From Eledone cirrhosa (taxonomy: Eukaryota), in assembly GCA_964016885.1 (NCBI GenBank), contig OZ024761.1, positions 27,404,001-27,468,000 of the forward strand: a stretch of 64,000 nt of DNA, written 5' to 3'. Shown piece by piece: positions 19,756 through 22,127 of the stretch. Made by a program: the position numbers and the translations under genes. Below the pieces are notes generated by a model. The model saw only the letters and a list, made by a program, of their open reading frames with translations, ran no database searches and had not been told where the DNA came from. Every line of letters starts with the position of its first letter. Position 1 is the stretch's first letter.

Positions 19756-22127
19756 AAGTTATATTTAAAATTGTTGGGTTACAACTAGTAAATATTTATA
19801 ACTGATATAAAAGCACTCGACAAATACTTGGAGTATATTTACAATATTAAATAAATGGAAAACTATATTTATAAAACCATATTTATTTCATTATATATAT
19901 TTCAGGGATATCATATTAACAATATGCTATGCCTTCCTCAGACAAAATACAATATAAACAGTTTTATAGATAAATAGATTTGACATACCGTAACAACATC
20001 GACTTGTATTTGAAAAGTTGAATTGGCAGTGAAAAGATTGTACACAGAGAGAAAGAAAGAGAGAAAAAAAGGAAAGAAAGACAGAAAACGAAGAAAAAGA
20101 AGAAAAAAGAAGAAATGCATGGAACAAAATAGAGAGATGGAAAGATAGATAAAGAGAAGAACTTCATGTAAAGAAACAGAGATATATATATATATATAGA
20201 GAGAGAGAGGAAATAGAGATAGATACATATATATAGAAAACTAGGTAGTGGGACGTCCGTTGAGTAAACGTATCAATGATACATTTATTTATTTATTTAT
20301 TTATTTAGCTCTAGTATTAATGTAAGGGAGATATATGTGGTTAGGATAGAAACCAGCTGTTATATAGAGAGAAAAATTAAAAATAACCAGACATAGGCGA
20401 GGCATAAAAACCCTATGTTTTAATGTAGAGGTATTAGTATGTATAAAATAAAAACCAGCCACTACATTGTAAATATCAGTATTCCTGAATGAGACATGTA
20501 TCCACAATGTGTGACAAGTAATGATCTTATGTTTAGTTTTTTTTAAAAATTCATATGTTTATGTGATAACTACAAACATCTATGTGAATTTACATGATCA
20601 ACTCTGCAAAGCCTAAGTTCACGGAAAACATTCTCATTGTGCTATAAAAATTTAAGTATACATATATGTGTATATATATACACACAGATATATATAGAGT
20701 CAATATTACTACTATTCCTGTCTTTACTCTACAAGATTAACTATCAAGCAGAAATAGAGAGCAGATTTCAATATACTAATAAAAACATAAAAATATATAT
20801 CAGAAACAAAACCAAAAAATAACAATAATAATAATAATAATAAGTAATAATAAAATAGAAAACTAAAAAATATTACGAAAGAATATTACATATTAAAAAT
20901 ATTACATATTAAAAATATTAAAATTAAAATATTAGAAAATACTACAATAATAAAAATAAACCACAAAGATCAACCCTTCAAAATTAATTGACAATATTGC
21001 CAAGTTCATTATAAGCATCAGAGTCGAAAAACAGATAAAGCCAAAAATTATTTATCAAATCGCATCTAGCAAAGATCATTTCAAAAAGTTTAGGATGCCC
21101 ATTTGGTCTACATGTGTTCTTATATTTAATATAGAAGTTTATCTAGTGTAACGTTTATTCGAAATATTTGGAGCATCAACTTTTAGGGTAGCTTAATTTT
21201 TCATGAAGAATGTTTAAATAAAAATAAAAATAAAAATAAAAAAGAATAAAAAGAAGAAATCAAAGATTTATCGGCTAGTTTCCCATATAATTATAAATCA
21301 AACTAAATATACTACATTTTAAATTTAAATTTATATTTAAACGTTGAGTTTAATCTATGTTTGCAGCAACTGAATAAATTTGTCCGTAGATTAAGGGAAT
21401 TTTTAGATTTTAGTATAAAGAATATCTCCTCTGCGCAGAGGTCACATGTCTCAGAGGATGAATTAAAAGGAATCCCTCTTGAGACTATATTCCAAGCCGT
21501 CGAATATCTAACGTTATCTAGCTTAAGTTGCCAGAGTACGCCTGATAGTGCCGTTGAAGATTTTTTGCTTGGATCTGTGAAAGAATTCTTGTGGTTATTA
21601 TAGCGAAGTTTAAATTCCGTCGATGTGGAACCGACGTAGTTAAAAGAATTAGAGTCAGTTTTAACATTACAATTGTATACTATATTTTTAACTAAGCAGT
21701 TGTTATTTAACGGACATTTAGATCTATCTCTACAGTTACATTTGTTAACTTGTATATTATTTATGCTATTATCACTAGGTTTTAAGTTCCTATTATTTAT
21801 TCTATTAATATTTTGTGCTAAATTTTTGGTGGATGAGTAGGTTAATTTTATTGTATGTCTATTGAAAATTGAGTGATACCTATGTGTTCTAGGGAAGCGA
21901 TTATCAAGAGCTTTAAAAACTGTTTATATTGTATTTCGTCCGAGGAAGGCACAGCACACTGTTAATATGACATCCCCGAAATACATATAACGAAACAAAC
22001 ATGGTTTTACAAATATAGCCTCCATCTACTTAATATTGCAAATACACTCCAAATACTTGTCGAGCGCCTCCATATCAGTTACAAACACCTACCAGCTGCA
22101 ACCCAACAACCTAAACACAACTTTCCA
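19752..22127 (-). mobile_element. 5'-truncated Penelope-like element (Naiad-like) with inverted 5' tail
   Basis: Minus-strand order: inverted tail (22127-21915), GIY-YIG ORF remnant, long 3' region, hammerhead motif (19884-19949, CTGAGGA...GAAA), tail, (TA)n. Confidence 0.85.
21312..21923 (-). pseudogene. PLE C-terminal linker + GIY-YIG endonuclease fragment (open, no start codon)
   Basis: Reverse complement of 23682-24293. Confidence 0.85.

Follow-up and report, generated by a model that had tools for sequence, protein, structure and literature searches.

An inverted 3′ tail of a Penelope-like element (PLE) in the genome of Eledone cirrhosa, here called arm B, carries a dense cluster of changes that all run in one direction. 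ADAR editing of an RNA, followed by its reverse transcription into germline DNA, is the best explanation of this cluster and very probably the correct one. It would be a direct, traceable case in which RNA edits become heritable DNA, a route that has long been proposed and has been argued mostly from indirect statistics. Arm B was found in a window of 64,000 nucleotides (contig OZ024761.1, positions 27,404,001 to 27,468,000), which is the whole stretch of DNA that was analysed and whose numbering is used below. The changes are referred to as edits for brevity.

The edited arm and its insertion

Compared with the majority of its three siblings in the window, arm B has 33 T>C and one T>G in 212 aligned columns, which agrees with the approximately 33 nearly exclusive T>C changes claimed from the sequence alone. 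The T>G, at 21944, is also present in two siblings and is thus a family polymorphism. Compared with the majority of 137 family arms from the genome, 34 of the 88 T are replaced by C, and no real change of any other type is seen, since the lone T>A listed at 22041 in this comparison stems from short-ended arms. The extra site, 21977, is polymorphic, with C in 34 of 136 arms, and may not be an edit. By part, the changes affect 18 of 56 T in the proximal part of the arm and 16 of 31 in its distal extension. Arm B contains no G>A and no C>T, so that the sense-strand G>A characteristic of APOBEC-type editing is absent. In 49 background arms of the family, none of which has more than six T>C or six A>G, T>C accounts for 45 of 282 differences, and 34 T>C out of 34 changes in arm B are therefore far beyond chance (about 1e-27 from the background spectrum). 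A 34-letter family pattern, degenerate for T and C, has 25,471 matches genome-wide (control, 0). Among the first 100 listed of these matches, none shows C for T more than once; the C of arm B is therefore derived, and the cluster is exceptional within a large, young family. Aligning and polarising the copies, a check proposed with the sequence-only reading, thus gave C as the derived state.

Arm B sits within a single palindromic insertion, 19752-25770 (Table 1). The end of the ORF meets arm B at a 4 nt A microhomology (21916-21919), and the native continuation behind 21919 is visible as loose ends in contigs from public runs. No T>C is found among the 337 T of 20950-21914. The two arms of the insertion differ by one internal substitution (20611) and a 2 nt microsatellite indel over about 2150 nt; both hold the junction between the element body and arm B, and all eight edits of the overlap are common to both. 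The sequence-only reading had missed that 23614-23690 is an exact inverted copy of 21915-21991 with identical C bases, and that the T>C clusters extend beyond arm B, on to 23312. Copies of the family terminate in TA tracts, at either of two sites (short and long) that lie about 82 nt from each other, and family palindromes usually carry one short and one long end. A separate daughter insertion at 23614-25770 was considered and rejected, since 19752-25770 joins a long and a short end in the way of other palindromes. In L012, L014 and L016, private variants occur in both arms of a single palindrome, which shows that one template usually serves for both arms at insertion.

Table 1. Features of the palindromic insertion and of a sibling copy in the window
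Feature	Position	Strand	Basis or remark
3′ tail, long end (arm A), next to TA tract, unedited	19752-19965	-	1 T>C/78 T
3′ untranslated region, no edit cluster	19966-21311	-	19966-20800: 4 T>C/228 T, 19 mixed differences
5′-truncated ORF end: Cys linker and GIY-YIG endonuclease	21312-21919	-	ORF; L242 aligned with homologs
Arm B, inverted long tail, hyper-edited	21916-22127	-	A>G on minus strand; compared with 137 arms
5′-transduced genomic segment, colinear with G000:C21:6230159-6231911 (L136 1217-2969)	22128-23613	-	
Hairpin, second repeat family (variant a), both arms edited, same strand	22298-22394	-	
TA tract with 15 CA interruptions, no TG; C21 pure TA	22513-22596	-	
Non-hairpin repeat, negative control	22618-22938	.	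0 T>C/94 T, compared with 20 family copies
Perfect hairpin, second repeat family (variant b), 4 + 8 edits on the two arms, same strand	23198-23312	-	
Mirror arm: 77 nt of edited arm B, ORF end, UTR, tail with short end in TA tract	23614-25770	+	
Unedited sibling hairpin, same family, reference copy	39104-39610	.	

Arm A, the expected partner of arm B, is nearly unaltered, and this caveat of the sequence-only reading stands. Its single T>C is also present in three other arms, and the chance that it would be unedited at the rate of arm B is about 1e-16. Arms A and B also differ in four small family variants. Arm B did not pair with its own 3′ tail. No partner is present in the assembly, and a pattern search of the assembly for the junction of arm B and body found the window and no other locus.

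The element appears to be a member of the Hydra clade of PLEs, judged by its motifs against the published description of that clade; it had been taken for a Penelope element, which holds in the sense of Penelope-like but not of Penelope proper. A longer family copy, L242, encodes 700 amino acids in a single ORF, in which a reverse transcriptase is followed by a C-terminal GIY-YIG-type endonuclease (alignment with ten homologs). The RWK motif is present in the homologs, and the L242 frame begins at its W. L242 has the RT motifs, DKT, a CxCX5C linker and the CxxC and CxH motifs, with no CCHH, a set that equals the description of Hydra-clade PLEs in the available part of PMC8557442. A Pfam search of the element proteins gave no match. 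Other traits of the clade found here are insertion into TA tracts, an inverted 5′-truncated copy and an extension at one end. The extension is about 82 nt long here, in contrast to 30-40 nt there; the present family has more than 25,000 arms, and edited copies and 5′ transduction are absent from the available part of that paper. A search of the tail for a hammerhead ribozyme gave no Rfam match (only low-complexity matches under gathering scores); core-like words can be seen by eye, and the predicted fold is not significant. Cleavage by this putative ribozyme was considered as the origin of the end of the mirror arm (23614; 21987-21991) and rejected, because the site lies within a few bases but on the wrong strand for the template.

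Paired regions and neighbour context

The middle segment has the same repeats as the locus on C21, in the same order and orientation, while the outer flanks in the window match C21 only via dispersed repeats. At the sites edited in the middle segment, the C21 locus, which is on another chromosome, reads T. This locus is a relative of the source and not its direct parent, as it differs from the window copy by 2% other substitutions, several indels, and a deletion and insertions of its own. DNA searches for a direct parent or intermediate, with three parts of the middle segment and the junction pattern, returned only the C21 homologue and the window.

Compared with C21, the two hairpins of the middle segment have 23 T>C at 47 T and one other change, whereas the non-hairpin blocks have 6 T>C at 266 T and 14 other changes. 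In the variant-a hairpin, 22323-22394 has 7 T>C at 17 T and no other change. The variant-b hairpin, whose predicted fold is one stem, has 12 T>C relative to 41 family copies, and its 86 nt unpaired tail is unedited. The non-hairpin repeat that serves as negative control has 2/101 relative to C21. All edits of the middle segment are A>G on the minus strand, which is the sense strand of the element. Since the hairpins are changed T>C on one strand and the unpaired tail and non-hairpin repeat are barely changed, one molecule of at least 1.4 kb was changed only where pairing is possible. The TA tracts at 22513-22596 and at C21 differ in length, so slippage has also contributed there.

The changes depend on the 5′ neighbour of the adenosine. 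In arm B, none of the seven sites with a minus-strand 5′ G is changed (0/6 in a second count), compared with 33 of 87 T (Fisher p=0.04). The earlier claim that such sites are spared therefore holds for arm B; in other arms it is a strong preference and not an absolute one, with 6 of 58 (p=2e-5) and 15 of 83 (p=2e-4) 5′ G sites changed in two sets of pooled arms. The rates for 5′ U, A, C and G are 0.44, 0.35, 0.27 and 0.10 in ten pooled arms and 0.43, 0.35, 0.16 and 0.18 in eighteen. The 5′ G depletion is weaker in the GC-rich hairpins of the window (5/19 versus 15/27), and the pooled arms show no 3′ G enrichment (12/42 and 19/65). Human RNA hyper-editing is depleted in 5′ G and enriched in 3′ G, according to the available part of PMC4365171, and in invertebrates, including octopus, the 5′ G depletion is shared and the 3′ G preference reduced, according to that of PMC5625713. 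The order of 5′ neighbours here matches the reported invertebrate and octopus context. The same sections report that lizard Penelope RNA is heavily edited (PMC5625713) and that the octopus hyper-editing rate is exceptionally high (PMC4365171, PMC5625713).

The genome encodes, on C6, an ADAR2 that is 95% identical to an Octopus protein, which places the host among the octopods. Three more adenosine-deaminase-domain matches are located at G000:C1:146.4 Mb, C1:320.7 Mb and C25:17.35 Mb. Features expected of an ADAR product, namely A>G clustered on one strand, confinement to duplex, 5′ G depletion and a host ADAR, are all found; an edited partner strand of arm B is not, with arm A at 1/78 and none retained.

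Recurrence and amplification

Edit-seeking patterns for the tail family (family 1) gave 4, 76 and 44 matches, and 30 + 30 loci from the two larger match lists plus 20 more were fetched. Among the 259 distinct family-1 arms aligned, 99 were flagged, and 65 of these belong to one amplified lineage; as the loci were picked by edit-seeking patterns, such class counts are not frequencies. By these counts, well under 1% of the arms in either family are hyper-edited. Same-strand edits on both arms are found in about ten more independent fold-back copies: L031 (29 + 28), L102 (27 + 24), L007/L035, L112, L205, L208, L216, L203, L101 and the founder of the amplified unit. Strand-coordinated A>G clusters are thus found elsewhere in the genome, where the sequence-only reading had suggested that they be sought. 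Four weak or diverged loci (L085, L209, L214, L032) were left out of the event counts, as was a hairpin mismatch-skew scan (71 of 236 testable inverted repeats, p<0.005) that is confounded by microsatellites and duplicate loci.

In eight long/short hairpins, 152 of 510 sites are changed in the paired zone, compared with 1 of 215 in the unpaired extension (p=1e-25). At seven family-1 loci, mirror arms have nearly all edits in common, all of them A>G on the sense strand, and no mirror T>C tails are present among the 259 family-1 arms. Because edits are shared by mirror arms, both ends of an insertion can come from one RNA. In L208, L216 and L101, converging tails, an upstream sense tail and a downstream inverted one, are edited together, and L208 has no edits in the outer arms of the element itself. 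Another one-sided case is L222/L230, where 46 T>C fall within about 500 nt.

The second repeat family (family 2) has 21,070 arms, and none of the first 100 listed has two changes. An edit-seeking pattern gave 41 matches, from which 20 loci were fetched: eight mirror pairs, three loci edited on both arms on the same strand (L267, L268, L270), four with the sense arm edited and the inverted arm not, and five single arms. The mirror pairs (8/20 loci) share A>G edits on the sense strand, polarity in this family being inferred from architecture and not from an ORF. The opposite-polarity pattern has 20 matches, with no short-range mirror pair. Changes affect 108 of 367 paired sites versus 4 of 236 unpaired sites, in a set that is partly pattern-selected. 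In L265, L275, L276 and L278 the mirror arms have most, not all, edits in common, as if inosine were read variably or editing went on between two priming events.

One edited unit has spread to about 30 copies, with 29 inverted arms and 30 tails that have 18 + 11 fixed edits in common. The loci are on many contigs and have a single edit pattern, within which variants are nested; of the 17 shared variants in the paired zone, 12 are further A>G on the same (RNA) strand. These nested edits and the roughly 30 shared copies imply inheritance and repeated passage through edited RNA. The edited hairpin is carried by a unit of about 3 kb; the RNA polarity of this unit agrees with the edits, and a short end is combined with a long one in five of its six palindromes examined (one end was not found, in L199). 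This unit (L198-L203, e.g. G000:C4:213929000-213938999) is non-autonomous, consists mostly of TA/TG mosaic microsatellite and is mobilised with the tail of another PLE-type family, the edited hairpin being a passenger. On the RNA strand of its mosaic TA tracts, 1832 TG interruptions are found versus 137 CA (12 arms, one origin).

ADAR and PLE reverse transcriptases may even form a standing germline mutational process in octopods, which would bring A>G into carried hairpins and turn TA tracts into TA/TG mosaics. This wider proposal is tentative and somewhat more doubtful than probable. The nested edits, the excess of TG over CA interruptions and the CA gains relative to C21 speak for it. Against it, the concordance of background tracts is significant only below 300 nt (103/113, versus 18/27 at 300-1000 nt), and slippage can mimic such concordance. 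If the proposal is true, edits made during retrotransposition, including those in host read-through DNA, help shape the repeat and microsatellite landscape.

Origin of the changes and relation to known systems

The source would be a read-through transcript from the source allele or a paralogue of the C21 locus, corresponding to the minus strand of the window. It would contain 1.5 kb of repeat-rich DNA, then an inverted PLE tail, then the element body and its 3′ tail. Nuclear ADAR would hyper-edit the double-stranded parts of this transcript, and the reverse transcriptase of the PLE, with a nick in a TA tract as priming site, would copy the RNA and read inosine as G. Both insertion ends would be made from one template, from the long and short start sites, giving a palindrome with common edits. 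A PLE protein nicks and extends both target strands and starts at two internal RNA sites that define the tail, as described in the available part of PMC11167929; such twin priming of both arms on one edited RNA is what we infer here. That a fold-back transcript was hyper-edited, reverse-transcribed and integrated was already proposed in the sequence-only reading, and the three same-strand hairpins, the unedited source, the confinement to paired zones and the sense polarity all support it.

The unedited 3′ tail is the least certain point of this explanation. The four family-2 loci with an edited sense arm and an unedited inverted arm, the lack of 3′ G enrichment and the edited 5′ G sites of the GC-rich hairpins also count against it. 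The edits of arm B reach through the distal extension, so that the strand with which it paired was a long tail. Most likely, this first partner was a converging tail that belonged to another copy upstream and was not carried along. The arrangement in L208, L216 and L101 would account for the window, provided that the partner was located past the truncation. In the 80 kb of C21 sequence that surround the homologue, a close sense long tail is absent within 10 kb upstream, and the nearest is 21 kb away and 85% alike. Alternatively, the reverse transcriptase may have switched template from an unedited to an edited RNA at the 4 nt microhomology.

Deamination of DNA, be it the cDNA strand of an RNA:DNA hybrid, a folded single-stranded cDNA or genomic hairpins in place, is an improbable source of the changes. 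The sequence-only reading had named it as a caveat, and it is kept here as a rival, since deamination by ADAR2 of the DNA strand in hybrids is known in vitro (reviewed in PMC11817618, available part) and a folded single DNA strand would likewise yield same-strand changes on both arms. However, deamination of cDNA predicts T>C on the sense strand, where the mirror pairs and the window show A>G. A hybrid covers the entire cDNA, yet the changes end at the edges of the fold-back, and the source locus is unchanged.

Error-prone synthesis, by a reverse transcriptase under skewed dNTP pools or by a polymerase-eta-like A mutator, is less probable again. The preference for 5′ U and A does resemble the WA motif of such polymerases, but 5′ C sites are changed at rates of 0.27-0.45 and a single transition type reaches up to 39-50% of sites. 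Polymerase error predicts other types of change and no confinement to duplex, and the ORF and the non-hairpin repeat of the same insertion have no change in 337 and 94 T, respectively.

An assembly or sequencing artefact at palindromes, which are hard to assemble, is very unlikely. One contig from a public run (122 nt, depth 12.8) agrees with 21893-21991 at every letter and spans 8-9 of the 34 edited sites, and the two arms of the insertion have these edits in common. The proposed check of the C bases in reads thus succeeded for these sites, in one of three runs; about 25 distal sites are without read cover. In the two remaining runs, from the same sample, 21955-21984 is without a contig, and 22075-22135 is uncovered in all three runs, which would suit an artefact, although uncovered stretches are not evidence of absence; the read sample may be the assembled individual. 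An artefact would not follow neighbour context, nor would it give one edit pattern with nested variants at about 30 loci on many contigs. Descent of the family from a C>T-mutated master, with the C-rich state ancestral, has a negligible probability, as the sites with C or G vary between independent copies and occur in both polarities, and T is the letter found in three unrelated families and at the C21 homologue.

A close known counterpart of RNA editing by ADAR with subsequent reverse transcription is that in avian retroviruses, for which A-to-G hyper-editing by ADAR is on record (RAV-1, Felder 1994; avian leukosis virus, Hajjar and Linial 1995; in the available part of PMC8586724). There also, clustered A>G in retroelement RNA was brought into DNA by reverse transcription. 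In contrast, the present element is endogenous and non-viral and its product inherited, unrelated flanking sequence was edited and moved with it, and the edited units amplify again. In endogenous retroelements, clusters due to APOBEC3 are known (PMC2873906, available part), which are likewise single-type mutation clusters fixed in genomic copies. They arise, however, by C>U on cDNA (sense G>A) independently of fold-back, whereas the present changes are sense A>G and confined to duplex. Hyper-editing of repeats at the RNA level acts on the same substrate with the same 5′ G depletion (available parts of PMC4365171 and PMC5625713), but it is seen as RNA-DNA mismatches, while here the change sits in the genome. 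The hypothesis of deaminase-driven reverse transcription, in the available part of PMC11817618, also has ADAR edits reaching DNA via reverse transcription; it concerns somatic strand bias and in-place replacement, in contrast to a traceable new retrotransposon insertion.

No report of inherited ADAR-edited endogenous retrotransposon copies was found in the full-text literature, with most subscription papers and supplements outside its coverage, and the available parts of PMC5974252, PMC3185545, PMC11817618 and bioRxiv 10.64898/2026.07.22.740005 describe no such copies. A prior description may exist, and ADAR hypermutation reaching DNA is already known for avian retroviruses. Genome-wide screens for APOBEC3-edited retroelements have followed the first finding of such clusters. 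In the edited PLE copies, ADAR activity on individual germline RNA molecules would be preserved as a fossil record that brings its own controls. As edits mark template strands, the unsettled origin of inverted PLE insertions becomes testable. Genomic A>G clusters in such copies could also be misread by RNA hyper-editing pipelines.

The window contains several other repeats. Further palindromic insertions of other repeat families, with arms 91-97% alike, are located at 15337-16100, 38315-38672, 53487-54292 and 62329-63229; none has an edit cluster where covered by the window scan. The only skew other than T>C in that scan is in a family-2 relative at 42573-42693, with five C>T among seven differences, which possibly reflects CpG decay or a subfamily. 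Two inverted fragments, 14085-14609 and 27187-27738, are 95% alike and presumably encode the end of an apparent restriction-like endonuclease of a non-LTR retrotransposon. By eye, a 458-residue frame with a CCHC zinc knuckle at 1577-2953 (minus strand) resembles a retrotransposon ORF1, and fragments like a mariner-type transposase are seen within inverted repeats at 62403-63237. A short frame at 54633-55052, with a Cys-rich linker and a GIY-YIG-like motif, looks, also by eye, like a member of a different Penelope-like clade.
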